Below, piece by piece: positions 1,671 to 28,789 of a stretch of DNA of 64,000 nucleotides. Under the pieces are notes generated by a model, which worked only from the letters and a program-made list of their open reading frames with translations, did not search any database and had not been told where the DNA came from. This DNA comes from a virus, in the IMG/VR virus record IMGVR_UViG_3300045988_010345; one strand, 5' to 3'. Numbering within the stretch: position 1 is the stretch's first letter; each line of letters starts with the position of its first letter. A program made the position numbers and the translations under genes.

Positions 1671-2114
1671 TTAAAGGTTAGTAGGGTCAAAAGGAGCCTC
1701 TTCACCAGCTTTTACTTCTGTCTCAGGTGCCTTCTCAGTGTCATCTACTGTCTCAGGAGCAACATCTTCAACCTCAGGCTCCTCTGTATGAATCTCATAC
1801 ACATTAGCCTCTTCATTGAATACTACTGTACCAGCCTTAGGCTCATACTTAGTAACCTTTATAGGCTTGCCATCCTTATCAACCTTACCAGTATCTTCTA
1901 CCTTCTTGACAACCAAGTCTTCACTTGTAAGACCACCTGTCAAAGCCTTAACACCCATCTCATGTCCTTCAATCTCCTCAGTCAGAGCATTATACTCTGC
2001 ATTGAGTTCATTAATCTTGGCAGCAATCTTATTCTTCTTTACTACCAAAGGATTAACATTCTGTGCAATTCTTTTTACACCTGCAAACTGTCTTACTGTT
2101 AATGTCTTATTCAT
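1671..2114 (-). CDS. hypothetical protein with acidic C-terminal tail
   Basis: 147-aa ORF packed in the minus-strand gene train. C-terminus is rich in E/D/P (EEPEVEDVAPETVDDTEKAPETE). Confidence 0.6.
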   Translation of the reverse strand: MNKTLTVRQFAGVKRIAQNVNPLVVKKNKIAAKINELNAEYNALTEEIEGHEMGVKALTGGLTSEDLVVKKVEDTGKVDKDGKPIKVTKYEPKAGTVVFNEEANVYEIHTEEPEVEDVAPETVDDTEKAPETEVKAGEEAPFDPTNL

Positions 2115-3177: not shown

Positions 3178-4383
3178 TTACTTGAAAAGGGCTGCAAATT
3201 TACTAAATAGTTTAGTTATCCACAACTCTTTATCTATTTTACTTATTCCATAGCTAAAAAATGACTTAGCTATCTTTGCTCTCATGTCTTGGAGAGATTT
3301 ATATACGTTCTGTATCTTAGGGTCATCAGCTTTTGGGAGTTCACTGAAATAGTTGGCAGCTCCATCAAAATATAAAGCTATTATACCTCCTGGACTTCCA
3401 CCTCTATTGATAAGCACCTCTAAGAATCTACAGTTATCCCTTAGCTTTGAAATGTCATAACCAAAGTATTCTTTAAGTTCATACTTGAAAGGGCTAAATA
3501 TACCTAAGGCTACATTACAATCTCTCATAGTATACTTTGAATCAGCAGCTCCTGCAACTGTAGGTCTTACTCTATTGAGTTTTATGTTTTCAATACCTTC
3601 ATTTTCAAAGGCTTGCTGTTGTACAATTACAGGACTAAAATTATATCTGTTTCTAAGTATAACACAATACTCACTTAATTTGTCAATACTTTGTTTCAAG
3701 GACATTCCTCTCTCAGTATTAGTCAATGATATATGGTCATAGAATATAATTCTATACTCATCTGGGTCATTAGACTCATACCAATCAAAGGCATCCACAG
3801 TGGTAATTTCTCCTAATTCTCCTTTTATAGTTTGCTTCTTAGTATGTACAATACCATTACTCTCTGCATACTTTCTACATTCATTATATACTCCTGTAGG
3901 ATTTGTAGATGCACTAAATATAACATTACTTTCAAAGAATTTAAGAATATCCAAATACTCGTCCTTTTTGAGTAAGTCTATTATAGTTTCATCTAACACT
4001 TTATTATTCCTGACAGACCTCAAGTCAGTTGGGCTAATTCTTATCTTGTAGCCACTCAATGTGTAGAGCAGATAAGACATGAATCTTGTCATAATATCTT
4101 CAGGAGTTTCCTCCAAAGGATAATAGAATATCTTAACTCTCAGCTTGTCAGGATTATTATAGGCATAAAGTAGAGTATTATATATGAATAAATAAGATGC
4201 TATCTGAGTCTTAGCTGACTTTGTTGAGCCAGTTACAACATAATACTTACCCTGCTCTACTCCCAAGAAATCCTCACTAAATCTAATAAAGGGAGAAGGA
4301 ATAGAGTTTATACCACTATTGATGACTTTCTTTCTTCTCTCTTCAAGACCATTTAATACTCTATTTATAAGACTTTTATCCAT
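3178..4383 (-). CDS. DnaB-like replicative helicase (RecA-fold)
   Basis: 401 aa with a deviant Walker A (VVTGSTKSAKT) and Walker B-like IIFYDHISL. Size and position fit phage DnaB-family helicases. Confidence 0.5.
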   Translation of the reverse strand: MDKSLINRVLNGLEERRKKVINSGINSIPSPFIRFSEDFLGVEQGKYYVVTGSTKSAKTQIASYLFIYNTLLYAYNNPDKLRVKIFYYPLEETPEDIMTRFMSYLLYTLSGYKIRISPTDLRSVRNNKVLDETIIDLLKKDEYLDILKFFESNVIFSASTNPTGVYNECRKYAESNGIVHTKKQTIKGELGEITTVDAFDWYESNDPDEYRIIFYDHISLTNTERGMSLKQSIDKLSEYCVILRNRYNFSPVIVQQQAFENEGIENIKLNRVRPTVAGAADSKYTMRDCNVALGIFSPFKYELKEYFGYDISKLRDNCRFLEVLINRGGSPGGIIALYFDGAANYFSELPKADDPKIQNVYKSLQDMRAKIAKSFFSYGISKIDKELWITKLFSKFAALFK

Positions 4384-4384
4384 A

Positions 4385-4984
4385 CTATCTTAACTCTGTA
4401 TTCCAATCCTTACTTAGAGTATCTTCTTGTCCAGAGTTCTCAATATAACTAATCAATTCTGAGTCTCCTTCAACCTCACCAGCAGCACCAACTTTCTCTT
4501 TGAATATGAAATACTTCAGTAACCTCATATATGTATAGTTCCCATTGAAACCCTCCACATACTTACTGGTTGCCTGTATGATTTGCTCATCAGTATAAGT
4601 ATTTCCATACTTCTTAAAGAATAGCTTCAATCTTCGTACAATTAAAGCTACTCCATCTGCCCAATAATAGTTAGTGCCATCTTTCTTACCTTTAGGGAAT
4701 ATCTCCTTTAGCCTTGTAGCCAACTGAACTAACCTATCATTAGGTTCTTGTTTTTTATCAGAGTCTACAATTACAGAATCTATTACCTCAGTGCCCTTAT
4801 TAGTAAGCCTCCATCCAATCTGCTGAAACAGGTCATTCCTGTTAGCAGTTATATAGCCTTTCTTGATTAGCTCCTTTTGAGCTACATCAAGGTCAGCATT
4901 ATTATGGATAGCAAGCATCAAGAGAGCCTCAGCAAGACTAATATTGTTCTTCTGACACCCTTCTTTACTTAAACATATTGTCAT
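4385..4984 (-). CDS. hypothetical protein between two helicases (possible loader or replication accessory)
   Basis: 199-aa ORF translationally coupled to both neighbours (1-4 nt junctions). No motif recognised. Confidence 0.6.
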   Translation of the reverse strand: MTICLSKEGCQKNNISLAEALLMLAIHNNADLDVAQKELIKKGYITANRNDLFQQIGWRLTNKGTEVIDSVIVDSDKKQEPNDRLVQLATRLKEIFPKGKKDGTNYYWADGVALIVRRLKLFFKKYGNTYTDEQIIQATSKYVEGFNGNYTYMRLLKYFIFKEKVGAAGEVEGDSELISYIENSGQEDTLSKDWNTELR

Positions 4985-10341: not shown

Positions 10342-10704
10342 TTAATCCTCTTTAGATTCTTTCTCCATAATTGCAGCAAGCATAAGGGCAGCTGCTGCAT
10401 CTCTTGCTGTAGCGTCTCCTTTATCTGCTTTTTCTTTCAACTCTTCCATCATTTTAATGCGAAGAGTATACTTTAGGGCTTCAATAGTACCCACCAACTC
10501 TCTTGCATTGAGGAATATTGCACTTGTTACAATCACCTCAATAGGTGCTTGCGCTGTCTTGCCTTTGTAGCTTTCTACCAAGTTTTCAACAAGTTCAACA
10601 TTGGTTAAACTACCATCTCTGCCACCTTTAATGGCTTCCGCAGCATTTTTAAAATGCTTCTGTTCCAGATTTCTTTCCAGAACCTTTTCTTCATTCTTTT
10701 CCAT
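10342..10704 (-). CDS. hypothetical helical protein
   Basis: 120-aa Ala/Glu/Lys-rich ORF. Confidence 0.6.
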   Translation of the reverse strand: MEKNEEKVLERNLEQKHFKNAAEAIKGGRDGSLTNVELVENLVESYKGKTAQAPIEVIVTSAIFLNARELVGTIEALKYTLRIKMMEELKEKADKGDATARDAAAALMLAAIMEKESKED

Positions 10705-10719
10705 CTTTAATTATTTTAG

Positions 10720-10995
10720 TTATTCATGTAAATGTTCTAAGTAATCCTTATCTAAGTCAGGATGTTTGTGTATTAGGAATCTGCAACTTATACACACTGC
10801 CAAATGAGCTACACCTTCTGCTGCTATAATTCCTATTACAATATCCTGCCATTTAGGAAGGGAATCTCGGCTTGTCAAGAAGAGTATAAGGATAAGCATG
10901 GTTATCCAAAAAGTACTACAATAGATGCAGAATCCCAATGGATATGCTATAAAATGTAAGAACCTATTGCCACTTTTAACCATAGGTACAAACAC
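10720..10995 (-). CDS. membrane protein (about 3 TM)
   Basis: 91 aa with multiple hydrophobic segments. Confidence 0.55.
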   Translation of the reverse strand: MFVPMVKSGNRFLHFIAYPLGFCIYCSTFWITMLILILFLTSRDSLPKWQDIVIGIIAAEGVAHLAVCISCRFLIHKHPDLDKDYLEHLHE

Positions 10996-11276
10996 TACTG
11001 TATATTAAGTAACTTAGCAATTCTTTGAAAAGCCCTTTCTTCATACTTTCTGTCCTCAGGGTAATTTATTGCATCTTTGTACCATTCTTCATAGCACTCC
11101 TTATCCATAGTATCATTTAATACTACAGGGTAGTAGATGTCTCCTAATATAGGATTATTACATTGCATACAGATACAATCTCCAGAGCCTGATATACCCC
11201 AACCCAGTTTACCTGCTTCATCTACTGACAATTTGATTACCTTGAACCCTTTGTCATTCTTAACTAACTTTGCCAT
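10995..11276 (-). CDS. hypothetical protein with Cys cluster
   Basis: 93 aa with GDCICMQCNNP; stop/start overlap with the downstream gene. Confidence 0.6.
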   Translation of the reverse strand: MAKLVKNDKGFKVIKLSVDEAGKLGWGISGSGDCICMQCNNPILGDIYYPVVLNDTMDKECYEEWYKDAINYPEDRKYEERAFQRIAKLLNIQ

Positions 11277-11306
11277 AAAAAGAAATTATTATTAAAATAC
11301 TTATTG

Positions 11307-11349
11307 TGGAGCATAGGGGGCTCGAACCCCTATAAACCAAAAATGCCCC
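11307..11349 (-). ncRNA. tRNA-Ala-like minihelix (acceptor stem plus T-arm only, no D or anticodon arm)
   Basis: Minus-strand RNA is GGGGCAU-UUUUGGUUUAU-AGGGG-UUCGAGC-CCCCU-AUGCUCC-A. It has a 7-bp acceptor stem with G3:U70 and discriminator A73, and a canonical T-arm. The 5' acceptor strand lies only 11 nt from the T-arm. Confidence 0.55.
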
Positions 11350-11561
11350 TTATTTGGATTCATTTCTTATTGAAAGAATGTCCTAACAAAGTCAAATATT
11401 GTTTTCTCTTGAAACATCATTATTAAAGTCACGTAGCTTCCTCTTTATATCCCCACATTGAAGCAGTTGCATTTATTAAGTGGTAATAGCTTACCTATTA
11501 GCATCCTTTCTATACACATTTTGGAAGTCTTTATGAAAGAAAAACAGTAGTTGACTTATAG

Positions 11562-11633
11562 TATCTCCACTGAGACTCGAACTCAGATATATAGTTTAGG
11601 AAACTATTGTTCTATCCCTTGAACTATGGAGAC
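11562..11633 (-). tRNA. tRNA-Arg (anticodon CCT)
   Basis: Manual cloverleaf: acceptor GTCTCCA/TGGAGAT, anticodon stem ATAGT/ACTAT, loop TTCCTAA, T-arm CTGAG-TTCGAGT-CTCAG. Confidence 0.85.
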
Positions 11634-11674
11634 ATTACAAAAGAAGACCTATATTCACATACCAGTCTCTTGTA

Positions 11675-11689
11675 GTGACAATATGTCAC
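11675..11689. promoter_or_regulatory. perfect palindrome GTGACAATATGTCAC (possible operator)
   Basis: 15-nt perfect palindrome between two tRNAs. Its core TGACAATATGTCA recurs at 18509-18521. Confidence 0.3.
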
Positions 11690-11749
11690 TCGAATTAAAA
11701 ATCCTTTACCTAAAACAATCAAATTACCTTATATGAGTAAATACCTTAG

Positions 11750-11822
11750 TACCCCCTATGGAACTTGAATCCATGACCCACAGATTAAAAATCTGTTGCT
11801 CTACCAACTGAGCTAAGGGAGC
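11750..11822 (-). tRNA. tRNA-Lys (anticodon TTT)
   Basis: Acceptor GCTCCCT/AGGGGGT, D-arm GCTC-AGTTGGTA-GAGC, anticodon stem ACAGA/TCTGT, loop TTTTTAA, T-arm ATGGA-TTCAAGT-TCCAT. Confidence 0.85.
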
Positions 11823-11873: not shown

Positions 11874-12296
11874 CTACTCCTCCACCTTTACACCGAAAGG
11901 AGTACCATCAGCGAATGTAAATCCATTGAATATATTATCAAACTTACCACCTGGACGAATTACCACACCACTGTCTGCTGAGCCATAACTTGCAAAACAT
12001 GCGAGAGCTTCATTGTTTTCAGAGATACAAGCCAAAAGTTCATAGGACGGCTTATTACCTTTTCTTTTTACCCAACCAAACGGTTGATGTTTTTGCATTT
12101 CTTGCCAACATTCATCTGCATCCTTAAAGGGGCGATACTCAGGACCTGGTTTTATGCGAAAGTCTTCATGAAACCCAGGAGTTAATACATTTCCACAATT
12201 AACCCAATTTCCATAACGATTTTTAAATTCTACTGTTTTACCTTCTGCAAATGCCTGTATTATAGGCAGCAAGTCTTTAGCTTCAGTTCTATTCAT
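11874..12296 (-). CDS. hypothetical protein
   Basis: Track ORF runs to 12389, but the ATG at 12296 (MNRTEAKDLLPI...) avoids overlapping the upstream gene; 140 aa. Confidence 0.6.
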   Translation of the reverse strand: MNRTEAKDLLPIIQAFAEGKTVEFKNRYGNWVNCGNVLTPGFHEDFRIKPGPEYRPFKDADECWQEMQKHQPFGWVKRKGNKPSYELLACISENNEALACFASYGSADSGVVIRPGGKFDNIFNGFTFADGTPFGVKVEE

Positions 12297-12357
12297 AATT
12301 ATAATTATTTTAATTGTATTTAAGGGAAATACCTGTAAAGGTATCTCCCTAAGTTTT

Positions 12358-12552
12358 TTAATCATTCCACATGTAAGCTTCATACTCACATGTTAATTCT
12401 CTTTCAGTCAGTTTTGCATCTTCAAGGTATGTCTTTAGAAATAAAGAACAATCATCAAAGCTATTGATATTATCTTCAAATTCTATACATAACCATTGTT
12501 CACAATATCTTACTGCTGCTTGCTGTCTTGCAGTTGATTTTCTTATTCTCAT
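12358..12552 (-). CDS. hypothetical small protein
   Basis: 64 aa; 4-nt overlap with the upstream gene. Confidence 0.5.
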   Translation of the reverse strand: MRIRKSTARQQAAVRYCEQWLCIEFEDNINSFDDCSLFLKTYLEDAKLTERELTCEYEAYMWND

Positions 12553-21067: not shown

Positions 21068-21141
21068 GGGCTTTGTAGTGTAATCAGGTTAGCACAAGAC
21101 ATTTGCAATGTTTTAGAGGAGTTCAAATCTCACAAGGTCCA
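21068..21141 (+). tRNA. tRNA-Cys (anticodon GCA), weak T-stem
   Basis: Acceptor GGGCTTT/AAGGTCC, anticodon stem AGACA/TGTTT, loop TTTGCAA. T-loop is TTCAAAT, but only 3 clean T-stem pairs. Confidence 0.6.
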
Positions 21142-21227
21142 CACTATGTTTTCATGTTTTCATAATGTTGAGCTTTTGCTTGAACCCTCTTTTGGGCAGT
21201 TAGAGGTTAAAGAAACTGCCCTATCAA

Positions 21228-21301
21228 TGCTCCTTAGTTCAGTGGTTTAGAACAGCTCTCTTACAAAGAGAAGGTCATTAGTTCAATTCTAATAGGAGCA
21301 A
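21228..21301 (+). tRNA. tRNA-Val (anticodon TAC)
   Basis: Acceptor TGCTCCT/AGGAGCA, D-arm GTTC-AGTGGTTTA-GAAC, loop CTTACAA, T-arm ATTAG-TTCAATT-CTAAT. Confidence 0.8.
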
Positions 21302-21308
21302 CATAAAT

Positions 21309-23110: not shown

Positions 23111-23184
23111 GCCTCCTTAGTGTTAATGGTTTAGCAAGCCTGTCTTGTAAACAGGAAGAGAGGGTTCAAATCCTTCAGGAGGCT
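23111..23184 (+). tRNA. tRNA-Thr (anticodon TGT)
   Basis: Acceptor GCCTCCT/AGGAGGC, anticodon stem CCTGT/ACAGG, loop CTTGTAA, T-arm GAGGG-TTCAAAT-CCTTC. Confidence 0.8.
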
Positions 23185-26163: not shown

Positions 26164-26517
26164 ATGAAAGCAGAAGATATTATAGAAGGTCTTAATAAAC
26201 ATATTGAGACAAGGAGAAGTGAGAGGGGAATTGAGAATGTAGGGCACATGGTATTACAGAAAGAAATTATACCTCATTCCTCATTCAAGGTTTATAAGAT
26301 TTACAAGTACACTCTTTGGTTTACTAGGAGAGGTAAATCTTATAAAGTAATAACAGCACAACATATTGCTAAGGTTCCTGATGGTCAGGAAGGTACCATG
26401 TTGAGAGAGATGAATATCATGTTGAGTACATTAATCTTCGATTGGATAGGCTCTGATTTTTATGAAGCAATTATAAAGGGAGAATATAATGGAGTTTCAG
26501 AAAATATCGACGAATGA
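26164..26517 (+). CDS. hypothetical protein
   Basis: 117-aa ORF overlapping the terminase start by 29 nt. Confidence 0.55.
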   Translation: MKAEDIIEGLNKHIETRRSERGIENVGHMVLQKEIIPHSSFKVYKIYKYTLWFTRRGKSYKVITAQHIAKVPDGQEGTMLREMNIMLSTLIFDWIGSDFYEAIIKGEYNGVSENIDE

Positions 26518-28789
26518 ATATCAAACTGAGCTAACTGAGGAATTGGTTAATAGCCTCCCTCAGGAAGTTCAGGACCAGTTATTTGATATTATAAATAATG
26601 TAGAGTTTGTCAAGAGATTGATAAGCCCTACAAGAGAATATGCTAAGGATAGACCAAGGGATGATAGGGGTAGAATCATTGTAGACTTGGCTAATCCTCA
26701 TATATTAGAGGATATGGACTATTTCAGACCATCTGCTATACATTATGAGAAGTATGGTACATTTACTAACCTTAGACCTAATGCCAATCCTAATAGTGAG
26801 TATGGCAAATGGGTAAGAGAGGAAAGGAGAAGAATCTGGGATGGCTATGTAAGGGAAAGTGATGGAGAATGGGTTACAGGTTATATGTACTGGTTTCTTA
26901 ATTATTCTCCTATGATGCTTTCTAAGATTAGAGAGTATAAGGATAAGAATGGCAAGAAGAGAAAGTCCAAGAGGGCTGATAGAGTAGAGGCACTACCTGA
27001 ATGTTGGGAAGGCATCTATTGGAGATTTCATTGCTTAGACCAAGCATCAAATGGAGGCTTATATAATAACTTTGAGGGAGGTCAACACATGGCTGAACTT
27101 GCTTCCAGAGGTAAGGGTAAGTCATATAGTCTTGCATCCATACTTAATCATATCTTTGTGGTAGGTGAGAATGAGGAGGCACATGAGAAGGTAAAGGGTA
27201 TAGTAACTGCTTATCAGAAGGAATATCTTACTAAGGATGGTGTTCTTAACAAGTTTGTAGATATGGCTAATTTCTGTGCAACTAATACTCAGTTTCCAAG
27301 GAAGAGATTAAAGAACTCTTTGCAGGAAATGACATGGATAATGGGGTATAAAGATGTAGAGTTGGACATTGAAAGAGGTACTCAGAATACAGTACTTGGA
27401 GTATCATCTAAGGATGATGAGTCTAAGTTGAGAGGTAAGAGAGCTGCTAAGATTCTTATTGAGGAGTTTGGTACATTCCCAAGACTTGTAGACTTGTATA
27501 ATGTACTGTTACCTTCAGTACAAGAAGGTGATATTGTCTTTGGTCAAATCTATATGTTAGGTACTGCTGGTGATAATGAATCAGACTTTGCTGGTGCCCA
27601 GGAAATTATGTATAATCCGAAAGGTTATAATATGTATGCTTTACCTAATGTATTTGATAAGTATAATCAAGGTAAGCCTTACTTTGTATTTTTCTTTCCT
27701 GGCTATATAAATAGAAAGGGATGCTATAATGAGAATGGTGTATCTGATGTAATTAAGGCTTTAATTGAAATTCTTATGAATAGGTATAGGGTAAAGTACA
27801 ATTCCACTGACCCTAATACTATTATTAAGACTATTGCTGAGGTTCCTATTACTCCTGCTGAGGCTATTGTTAAAACAGGTGTAAATATGTTCCCTGTAGC
27901 TGACTTGACTGAGAGAATAGGTCAATTGGATGCTAATCTTACAGAGTATGATGATGTATATGTAGGTGATTTGGTATTCAATAAAGAGGGTCAGGTAGAG
28001 TATAAACCTACCTCTGCTACACCTATCAGGGATTTTCCACATAAGGATAATAAGATAGAAGGTGCTATTGAAATATATCAAATGCCTGAGATTGACAAGA
28101 ATACAGGCAAGCCATATAATGATAGATATATATTAGGTGCTGACCCTTATGATGATGATGAGTCAAATACTATGTCTTTGGGTTCTATATTTGTACTGGA
28201 TTTATGGACAGATAGGATAGTAGCTGAATATACTGGAAGACCTTCTTTTGCTGATGATTACTATGAGATTTGTAGAAAACTTTGCCTATTCTACAATGGC
28301 AGACTGAATTATGAGTATAACAAGAAAGGTCTATTCTCCCACTTCTCGATAAGAAATAGTCTCTATCTTCTTACAGATGTTCTTGATTTCTTAAAGGAGA
28401 AGCAGATGATGAAGGATGGCTATGGTAACAAGTCAAAAGGTACTAATGCCTCTCCTGCCATTAATGCTTTTGCAAGGAGTAGATTGAGAAGCTGGCTATT
28501 AGCCCCAGTTCCTATTATGCAGACTATTGATGGAGAAGAGAAAGAAGTAATGGTTCCAAGACTATTTACTGTAAGAAACAGAGCACTACTAAAGGAGCTT
28601 ATTAACTACAACTCTGAAGGTAACTTCGATAGAATATCTGCTATGGGCATGTTAATGCTTCTGAGAGAAGATAGGATGATAAGATACCAAGGAGATGTTA
28701 GTAAGGAGAAGCAAGAGAGAGCTAATAATAGTTATGATGGTAATGACCCATTCTTCAAGAGAAACTATGACTTTAGGTTTAGGCAGTAA
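26489..28789 (+). CDS. terL: terminase large subunit
   Basis: 766 aa with Walker A-like SRGKGKSY, Walker B-like KILIEEFG and an acidic nuclease-type motif LGADPYDDD; followed by a portal-sized gene. Confidence 0.7.
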   Translation: MEFQKISTNEYQTELTEELVNSLPQEVQDQLFDIINNVEFVKRLISPTREYAKDRPRDDRGRIIVDLANPHILEDMDYFRPSAIHYEKYGTFTNLRPNANPNSEYGKWVREERRRIWDGYVRESDGEWVTGYMYWFLNYSPMMLSKIREYKDKNGKKRKSKRADRVEALPECWEGIYWRFHCLDQASNGGLYNNFEGGQHMAELASRGKGKSYSLASILNHIFVVGENEEAHEKVKGIVTAYQKEYLTKDGVLNKFVDMANFCATNTQFPRKRLKNSLQEMTWIMGYKDVELDIERGTQNTVLGVSSKDDESKLRGKRAAKILIEEFGTFPRLVDLYNVLLPSVQEGDIVFGQIYMLGTAGDNESDFAGAQEIMYNPKGYNMYALPNVFDKYNQGKPYFVFFFPGYINRKGCYNENGVSDVIKALIEILMNRYRVKYNSTDPNTIIKTIAEVPITPAEAIVKTGVNMFPVADLTERIGQLDANLTEYDDVYVGDLVFNKEGQVEYKPTSATPIRDFPHKDNKIEGAIEIYQMPEIDKNTGKPYNDRYILGADPYDDDESNTMSLGSIFVLDLWTDRIVAEYTGRPSFADDYYEICRKLCLFYNGRLNYEYNKKGLFSHFSIRNSLYLLTDVLDFLKEKQMMKDGYGNKSKGTNASPAINAFARSRLRSWLLAPVPIMQTIDGEEKEVMVPRLFTVRNRALLKELINYNSEGNFDRISAMGMLMLLREDRMIRYQGDVSKEKQERANNSYDGNDPFFKRNYDFRFRQ

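Follow-up and report, generated by a model that had tools for sequence, protein, structure and literature searches.

An acceptor stem stacked coaxially on a T-arm, with the G3:U70 pair and the discriminator A73, is the minimal type of substrate for alanyl-tRNA synthetase (AlaRS), RNase P, the CCA-adding enzyme, and EF-Tu, and acceptor/T-arm minihelices suffice as RNase P substrates. A synthetic minihelix-Ala was reportedly used in vitro by Francklyn and Schimmel in 1989. We analyzed a natural element with the same coaxial stack, G3:U70 pair, and A73, which occupies positions 11307 to 11349 on the minus strand of a 64,000-nt stretch of viral DNA from IMG/VR record IMGVR_UViG_3300045988_010345 (the whole stretch is referred to below as the window). 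The element is 43 nt long and differs from the synthetic minihelices in that a bulge of 11 nt separates its acceptor stem from its T stem. By sequence comparison it is an internally deleted gene for phage transfer-messenger RNA (tmRNA, encoded by ssrA).

Mycobacteriophage DS6A carries a phage-borne tmRNA derivative without a tag frame, which a scan placed at 28478-28557 of JN698994 (80 nt; tmRNA Website tmID 11587). The result that an RNA like that of DS6A inhibits tmRNA reportedly comes from Mao et al. 2009 (RNA Biol 6:355). According to PMC4131195 and PMC11915505, the DS6A RNA is a "TLD only" tmRNA, TLD being the tRNA-like domain, and a similar molecule strongly inhibits tmRNA, perhaps via titration of SmpB. 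The window element shares with the DS6A type an alanine-type acceptor with G3:U70, a T-arm, the lack of a tag open reading frame (ORF), and descent from tmRNA. The two differ in that the 80-nt DS6A RNA has a GGUCGAC D-loop motif and a 5-bp H2 hairpin, whereas the window element has in their place an unstructured linker of 11 nt; it keeps UUUUGGUUU only, the GAU/GAC junction and H2a having been deleted, and so it lacks the elbow used for SmpB binding. They differ also in that the DS6A-like RNA was tested experimentally, whereas the window element is known from its sequence and has close relatives carrying the intact gene.

Reduced tmRNAs lacking a coding sequence (CDS) for the tag are further described for jakobid mitochondria (ssrA; Jacob et al. 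2004; PMC3590771) and for some plastids, with forms of ~65 bp in Mallomonadaceae (PMC11915505). These are also natural reductions to the tRNA-like domain that keep G3:U70 and A73, but they are conserved across species and co-occur with SmpB, whereas the window element is a recent and rare allele; most of the mitochondrial CDS-less tmRNAs are, in addition, permuted two-piece genes. Fragments of the tmRNA TLD were used in vitro by Shimizu and Ueda 2006 (via PMC3929946), where a TLD fragment together with SmpB supports peptidyl transfer.

The minus strand from 11349 to 11307 reads GGGGCAU-UUUUGGUUUAU-AGGGG-UUCGAGC-CCCCU-AUGCUCC-A. All seven pairs of the acceptor stem form, G3:U70 included, the discriminator is A73, the T-loop matches the UUCRANY consensus, and both the D arm and the anticodon arm are absent; the first-pass annotation, made from the sequence alone, had described exactly this minihelix. 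No CCA is encoded after the element, the next bases being CAAUAA, and the same 3′ trailer follows the gene in the full-length relatives. The parts listed below were assigned from the sequence itself and by comparison with two related contigs, L013 (ERZ1034865, 96 kb), which has a full-length tmRNA of 382 nt, and L014 (ERZ1034691, 98.9 kb, an independent assembly), which has the same short form, here called the mini allele.

11307..11349, minus strand: the whole 43-nt tmRNA (ssrA) remnant, a tRNA-like domain without H2, tag ORF, or pseudoknots (alignment with the L013 tmRNA; mini allele of L014)
11343..11349, minus strand: 5′ acceptor strand GGGGCAU (G1-U7), in which G3 pairs with U70; the same as the first 7 nt in every full-length homologue
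11332..11342, minus strand: linker UUUUGGUUUAU, 11 nt (sequence)
11334..11342, minus strand: UUUUGGUUU, the surviving part of the single-stranded D-loop analogue, GG doublet included (Rfam alignment of L013)
11332..11333, minus strand: deletion junction AU, where L013 has U, the whole H2-enclosed domain, and C (net loss 339 nt); the junction sequence of the mini allele is GGTTTATAGGGG
11315..11331, minus strand: T-arm AGGGG/UUCGAGC/CCCCU, with stem strands 11331..11327 and 11319..11315 and loop 11326..11320
11307..11314, minus strand: 3′ acceptor strand AUGCUCC (11314..11308) and discriminator A73 (11307) (sequence)

For the 43-mer, the minimum-free-energy fold is this minihelix, which also persists in both the minimum-free-energy and the centroid folds of a 133-nt context. 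Compared with shuffled sequences the fold energy was not significant (z = -1.3 for the 43-mer and -0.9 for the 133-nt context), so that folding energy by itself would not have been enough to establish the element. The architecture was also sought by a structural scan that required a 7-bp acceptor stem, a linker of 0-20 nt, a 5-bp stem with a TTCRANY loop, and a 3′ strand directly adjoining; it returned 11307..11349 as the sole match in the window and found no match in 300 first-order-Markov random sequences of 64 kb. Neither a tRNA nor a tmRNA was called at the site by ARAGORN or Rfam. No cloverleaf was thus overlooked, and the concern that a full tRNA had been mis-folded at first reading can be laid to rest.

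The element has the tRNA-like domain of tmRNA, namely, a 7-bp acceptor stem, G3:U70, the discriminator A, and a TΨC-type loop. The pair G3:U70 and A73 is also the identity set of tRNA-Ala, and tmRNA has the same set; the cloverleaf of a tRNA-Ala, with D-arm and Ala anticodon arm, was not found at 11307-11349. With just 11 nt between the stems, the mRNA-like domain (resume codon and tag reading frame) is not in the element. H2 and the pseudoknots are absent as well, and the gathering threshold of Rfam RF00023 (47 bits) is not reached. At E ≤ 10, the sub-threshold partial matches in Rfam were mascRNA-menRNA (18.6 bits), tmRNA_permuted (17.1 bits), and beta_tmRNA (12.4 bits), which are suggestive and not diagnostic.

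The source gene was recognized in related phages. The 93-aa ORF at 10995-11276, used as a synteny anchor, led to three related viral contigs (L001, L002, and L003), each having just upstream of that ORF a gene of 302-380 nt that starts with GGGGCAU and ends with GGGUUCGAGUCCC..AUGCUCCA. A pattern scan for the 3′ end and its trailer yielded L010 from IMG/VR and L012 to L015 from metagenome assemblies, all of them full-length tmRNA genes with the exception of L014. The full-length genes at the syntenic site, 302-382 nt in length, are as follows (L012 is the same as L010).

L001, 2590-2970: tmRNA gene
L002, 1508-1812: tmRNA gene
L003, 2674-2976: tmRNA gene
L010, 7992-8374: tmRNA gene
L013, 3821-4203, minus strand: tmRNA gene
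L015, 203-585, minus strand: tmRNA gene

ARAGORN called a tmRNA in every one of these, with the tags GNTSYRVAA, GNTSYRIAA, and DNTYRVAA, and Rfam RF00023 scored 69-72 bits on L001, L002, L003, and L013 (69.1 for L013) against the gathering score of 47. The genes of these Steigviridae phages fall into two size classes, ~302-304 nt and ~380-382 nt. Their T-stem covaries (AGGGG/CCCCU, UUGGG/CCCAA, and AAGGG/CCCUU), and these compensatory changes indicate a genuine phage tmRNA family under structural constraint. The phage tags end in R-V/I-A-A, and those of Bacteroides host tmRNAs end in A-L-A-A.

L013 and the window are collinear on either flank, with L013 positions 3510-3846 aligning with 10996-11331 at 98.5% identity and 4188-4657 with 11334-11803 at 92% identity. 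Between the flanking blocks lie the 382-nt tmRNA in L013 and the 43 nt in the window. Because a full-length tmRNA stands at the syntenic site and the flanks are collinear, sequence comparison assigns the element as what is left of a deleted ssrA gene. In a three-way alignment, the window consists of the first 16 nt (GGGGCAUUUUUGGUUU), the junction dinucleotide AU, and the last 25 nt (AGGGG...CUCCA); the first 16 and the last 24 nt are the ends of the L013 gene, one T-loop base excepted. That base, at position 11320, is C in the window (UUCGAGC) and U in L014 and in all full-length genes (UUCGAGU), and it is the sole T-arm difference. The window element thus shares with the full-length genes an orthologous locus, the same flanks, the same trailer, and both ends, and it differs from them in being short of 339 nt that hold H2, all pseudoknots, the resume codon, and the tag ORF, as well as in falling below the Rfam tmRNA threshold and going uncalled by ARAGORN.

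In the Rfam structure alignment, the L013 gene runs from the 7-nt acceptor strand through 10 unpaired nt (UUUUGGUUUU, the D-loop analogue) into the 5′ strand of the long-range helix H2a (GAUUACUAAUUA...), beyond which come the body with the mRNA-like part and the pseudoknots, the 3′ strand of H2a (...AGAUUAGUAAGA), a single unpaired C, and the T-arm. What is missing from the window extends from the last U of the unpaired stretch through the penultimate base of H2a, and the breakpoints lie 1-2 nt from the base of this helix. A DNA fold of the L013 gene pairs the breakpoint regions too. The ancestor would have been a tmRNA gene of ~382 nt, downstream of tRNA-Arg and 30 nt upstream of the 93-aa ORF. 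A single deletion of 339 nt would then have taken the whole H2-enclosed domain, that is, pseudoknot 1, the resume codon, the tag frame GNTSYR[V/I]AA, and the remaining pseudoknots, and would have left the T-arm and 3′ acceptor strand abutting the 5′ acceptor strand with its 9 nt of D-loop analogue. Both breakpoints would be juxtaposed by the inverted repeat that makes up H2, and replication slippage across the H2 stem, which we consider a plausible mechanism, would excise the enclosed domain. Breakpoints at the stem base combined with slippage would explain the tidy minihelix without selection. A GATTA repeat near both breakpoints was considered as microhomology and rejected, since recombination there gives a 23-nt linker, unlike that observed, and no simple repeat-mediated deletion mechanism could be demonstrated at the junction.

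The deletion junction recurs in L014, and conservation in related phages, which the first-pass annotation had proposed to check, holds to the extent that L014 has the 43-nt form; the other relatives carry the full-length tmRNA instead. L014 and the window are 98.5% identical over an 827-nt block containing the remnant and 78-97% identical in a mosaic of other blocks, and on this sequence evidence the shared block is young. The single substitution between the two mini alleles gives no information on selection. When IMG/VR was scanned for further mini forms with a gapped pattern (GGGGCAT, a gap of 4-34 nt, and the T-arm with acceptor), there were 0 matches. The mini allele is on record in 2 genomes versus at least 7 full-length contigs, plus GenBank homologues. 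Most likely it is neutral or nearly so, and a minority allele among the related genomes sampled.

The remnant is most probably a case of ordinary gene decay, and a more extreme form of the CDS-less or TLD-only tmRNA derivatives already known. The first-pass annotation had offered a decayed tRNA-Ala as one possibility; the decay was well guessed, and the parent was not, since the syntenic gene of the relatives is a full-length tmRNA. The decay reading accounts for the odd tRNA-like motif, with tmRNA as the source gene rather than tRNA-Ala or attP. As the tag template is gone, the 43-nt product is no longer a tmRNA and cannot act as one. The remnant would still lie inside the old tRNA/tmRNA transcription unit, on the same strand, below tRNA-Lys and tRNA-Arg and above the ORF. 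If transcribed, it would probably be cleaved by RNase P, tailed with CCA, and alanylated by host AlaRS, all as a by-product; the 12-bp acceptor/T-arm stack and the unencoded CCA point to a substrate for RNase P and the CCA-adding enzyme, and G3:U70 with A73 to one for AlaRS. These expectations follow what is established about minihelices as substrates and about the biology of tmRNA (PMC3929946). We consider it probable that the mini allele is a recent loss-of-function allele and that any processing or alanylation of its RNA is such a by-product and not an evolved function.

Several observations weigh against this view. The remnant keeps exactly the features that a chargeable alanine minihelix needs, and the mini allele persists in two genomes that differ substantially elsewhere, with their sole substitution at a variable T-loop position, outside the stems. 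DS6A provides the precedent, cited above, of a TLD-only tmRNA with a tmRNA-inhibiting counterpart. No clean direct repeat is present at the junction, so that slippage across the stem is our reconstruction, and the junction dinucleotide AU requires one extra change relative to L013. Finally, the window covers 64 kb of a genome of ~95-99 kb. ARAGORN and Rfam found no other tmRNA in these 64 kb, and a second, intact tmRNA may lie elsewhere in the genome.

A functional alternative is that the 43-nt RNA is a TLD-only mini-tmRNA that is expressed, matured by RNase P and CCA addition, charged by AlaRS, and maintained by selection. In one mode, the crAss-like lineage would have turned its tmRNA into an alanine-accepting decoy. 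Such a decoy would sequester SmpB, EF-Tu, or AlaRS and thereby dampen trans-translation in the host, as has been proposed for DS6A, or would disturb the AlaRS and EF-Tu pools during infection. In another mode, stalled ribosomes would take up the RNA, which would contribute alanine but no tag. No damage is seen in the acceptor stem, in G3:U70 and A73, in the GG doublet of the D-loop analogue, or in the T-loop, which fits the consensus; two distinct genomes have the mini allele in common, and the sole substitution falls at the variable T-loop position 60. The DS6A precedent, the tmRNAs without tag ORF of jakobid mitochondria and some plastids, and the peptidyl transfer supported by a TLD fragment with SmpB would all be in keeping with such a function. 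The element is, however, far more reduced than the 80-nt DS6A TLD, in which the ...GGUCGAC motif and a short hairpin of H2 survive. The window element has lost the whole of H2a together with the GAC/GAC junction. In TLD-SmpB structures this junction and H2a contribute to SmpB binding, and their loss makes titration of SmpB doubtful. The mini allele is also rare (2 genomes versus at least 7 with the full-length gene, the IMG/VR scan having found none) and young, judging by the 98.5% identity of the shared 827-nt segment; there is no sequence evidence of selection, one substitution being uninformative, and the tidy shape of the element is accounted for by breakpoints at the stem base. On balance we regard a selected function of the 43-nt RNA as unlikely and conversion of the tmRNA into an alanine-accepting decoy as an outside chance. 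Were it so, the RNA would be expected to be expressed, CCA-tailed, and alanylated in Bacteroides, in parallel to the tmRNA-inhibiting TLD-only RNA of DS6A, and we know of no natural tmRNA derivative smaller than such a 43-nt minihelix.

A still less probable role is that of RNA-processing punctuation, for which the tRNA-like fold would be retained: cleavage there by RNase P and 3′-end processing would divide the tRNA transcript upstream from the mRNA of the 93-aa ORF and set the 5′ end of the latter, a role that the intact tmRNA would earlier have served as a side effect. The order on one strand of tRNA-Arg, tmRNA or remnant, 27-31 nt, and ORF start is common to the mini-allele genomes and to L001, L002, L003, L013, and L015; no intrinsic terminator is predicted between the tRNAs, the remnant, and the ORF; and, as noted, minihelices of this kind suffice for RNase P. 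The idea is, however, purely inferential, and in L010 the tmRNA precedes a different gene, so that coupling of tmRNA and ORF is not conserved. A recent deletion that left the fold by chance is simpler.

The first-pass annotation had also suggested an attP-like copy of a host tRNA 3′ end and had proposed a comparison with the tRNA-Ala genes of host Bacteroidales. The match itself exists: the 25 nt of T-arm and 3′ acceptor strand are identical to tRNA-Ala 3′ ends in more than 120 bacterial genomes, Bacteroidales metagenome-assembled genomes (MAGs) included. The 25-nt form of L014 and the full-length relatives is the 3′ end of tRNA-Ala(CGC) in three Bacteroidales MAGs (L018, L058, and L086), and the C-variant of the window occurs in tRNA-Ala(GGC)-type attP sites beside integrase genes on the unrelated viral contigs L004-L007. 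This identity indicates only that the tRNA-like domain of the phage tmRNA closely mimics tRNA-Ala. The intact syntenic tmRNA of the relatives ends with the same 25 nt, and the 16 nt on the 5′ side match the 5′ end of tmRNA (GGGGCAUUUUUGGUUU) and not tRNA-Ala (GGGGUAUUAGCUCAG...), as is also seen when the 5′ acceptor strand and D-loop analogue are compared together (GGGGCAUUUUUGG vs GGGGUAUUAGCUC). An attP site leaves the 5′ acceptor strand GGGGCAU unexplained, and the two nearest scanned ORFs (10995-11276 and 11874-12389) have no match to integrase families, nor has ORF 10342-10704 further downstream. The phage, moreover, has its own intact tRNA-Ala elsewhere (21068-21142, described below). 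We consequently rejected the attP reading on the strength of the syntenic tmRNA 3′ end, the 5′ acceptor strand, and the want of an integrase-like match in those two ORFs; that the element is an attP-like copy, or a phage tRNA-Ala stripped of its D and anticodon arms, is hardly credible.

The four viral contigs came from an exact 25-mer scan of IMG/VR and were a false lead as to origin. Each contains a tRNA-Ala(GGC) 3′ half that extends from the anticodon loop through the encoded CCA (L004, 10368-10392; L005, 427-451, minus strand; L006, 134-158; L007, 8504-8528), and in L006 and L007 it follows coding sequence that by eye resembles an integrase C-terminus. They look like classical attP sites of temperate phages. 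These sites share the 25 nt of T-arm and 3′ acceptor sequence with the window element but begin in the anticodon loop, end with an encoded CCA, and abut an integrase gene, whereas the window element includes a 5′ acceptor strand and lacks CCA, and neither of the two nearest scanned ORFs has a match to integrases.

An assembly artefact, in which the assembler collapsed a structured or repeated region, is the kind of error to which the base of an inverted repeat is prone, but it is next to impossible here, as the same junction occurs in L014, a distinct genome with a single-nucleotide difference inside the element and 1.5-22% divergence elsewhere.

With gene decay as the preferred reading, the window and L014 on one side and L013 and L015 on the other form a natural allele pair with near-isogenic flanks, without and with the tmRNA interior. 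The pair could be used to ask what benefit a tmRNA brings to a gut phage and whether an alanine minihelix on its own is produced and charged in vivo. The remnant also draws attention to the Steigviridae tmRNA gene family, with its unusual RVAA/RIAA tag ends. At least one GenBank record annotates the gene: for Mahstovirus faecalis cr106_1 (MT774378, 29657-29960) it is entered as "transfer-messenger RNA, SsrA". GenBank homologues comprise those of cr106_1, cr128_1, and Kehishuvirus "tikkala". A literature search for tmRNA in Crassvirales, limited to the searchable library, found no paper that discusses it, the papers with both terms appearing to be mostly about annotation or methods. A DNA search of GenBank phages with a 646-nt region matched tRNA-Arg alone and left the element unmatched, and a protein search with the 93-aa ORF found distant homologues (≤42% identity) in non-syntenic phages only. 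Neither the 93-aa ORF nor a detectable tmRNA homologue is present in cr85_1, the nearest named relative by terminase.

In "tikkala" (L140, OQ198717.1, Kehishuvirus sp.), the tmRNA match lies at 1501-1792 in two BLAST pieces, with 61% query coverage and 88% identity, and this interval carries a GenBank annotation of two short hypothetical proteins on opposite strands. By its sequence it is probably an RNA gene mis-annotated as protein-coding. A further RNA-like element of ~105 nt was seen in a Bacteroides sp. MAG (L074, JAVBUC010000011.1, minus strand, ~2070..1964), reading GGGGCAU...AGGGGUUCGAGUCCCCUAUGCUCCA. It has the same acceptor stem and T-arm with a single long hairpin between them (fold z-score -2.1); ARAGORN is silent on it, and Rfam tmRNA matches its two ends only, at 20 bits, below the 47-bit threshold. 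Neighboring ORFs encode proteins resembling helix-turn-helix/excisionase and S24 (LexA/CI-like) proteins, a context that suggests a mobile element, and the RNA could be another CDS-less tmRNA-like RNA.

The phage itself is, on sequence grounds, crAss-like (Crassvirales, Steigviridae, Asinivirinae, near Kahnovirus), its large terminase (26489-28789) sharing 94.6% identity with the Kahnovirus oralis cr85_1 protein and 84% with the IAS virus protein. Features around the remnant, together with the separate tRNA-Ala gene, are the following.

10995..11276, minus strand: 93-aa ORF, phrog_22392, of unknown function, downstream, starting 30 nt after the remnant
11350..11560, minus strand: non-coding spacer of 211 nt that separates the remnant from tRNA-Arg(CCU) and is conserved in L013, L014, and L001
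11561..11633, minus strand: tRNA-Arg(CCU), same strand as the remnant and upstream of it
11749..11822, minus strand: tRNA-Lys(UUU), same strand as the remnant and upstream of it
21068..21142, plus strand: canonical tRNA-Ala(UGC), acceptor GGGCUUU/AAGGUCC, G3:U70, A73 (ARAGORN, Rfam), separate from the remnant

The tRNA-Arg(CCU) also lies upstream of the tmRNA, by 6 to ~1,100 nt, in the scanned relatives L001, L002, L003, L013, L015, and cr106_1; in L010 a tRNA-Arg(UCU) stands beside the tmRNA instead. No SmpB-like ORF was found in the window by tblastn with an E. coli SmpB probe (nothing better than E = 1.1). No promoter-like site or terminator was found on the minus strand near the element, in a scan that is uninformative for Bacteroides or phage promoters.

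The tRNA-Ala(UGC) gene contradicts the earlier statement that the phage has no canonical tRNA-Ala, and the count of 26 canonical tRNAs given at the same time comes down to 23 by ARAGORN and 24 by Rfam in the window. This tRNA-Ala has the lowest Rfam score among the window tRNAs (40.4 bits) and an anticodon at position 37, and from its sequence it may have an unusual D-region. The interval 23111-23184 (plus strand) is a tRNA by Rfam (51.9 bits) that ARAGORN does not list. ARAGORN also made calls with unusual A34 anticodons, namely, Cys-ACA at 21228-21302 of the window (plus strand) and at 14101-14175 of L013, Asn-ATT at 10048-10119 of L014 (minus strand), and an 89-nt His-ATG at 997-1085 of L003; two calls in L010 have irregular anticodon loops. 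All of these could be odd decoding or suppressor-type tRNAs, or mis-calls.

In L001, two extra ORFs lie at 1897-2519, between the conserved spacer and the tmRNA, encoding 136 aa (no PHROG match) and 71 aa (phrog_3474). Neither occurs in the window, L013, or L014, and this comparison indicates probable gene-cassette flux at a hotspot in the tmRNA locus.

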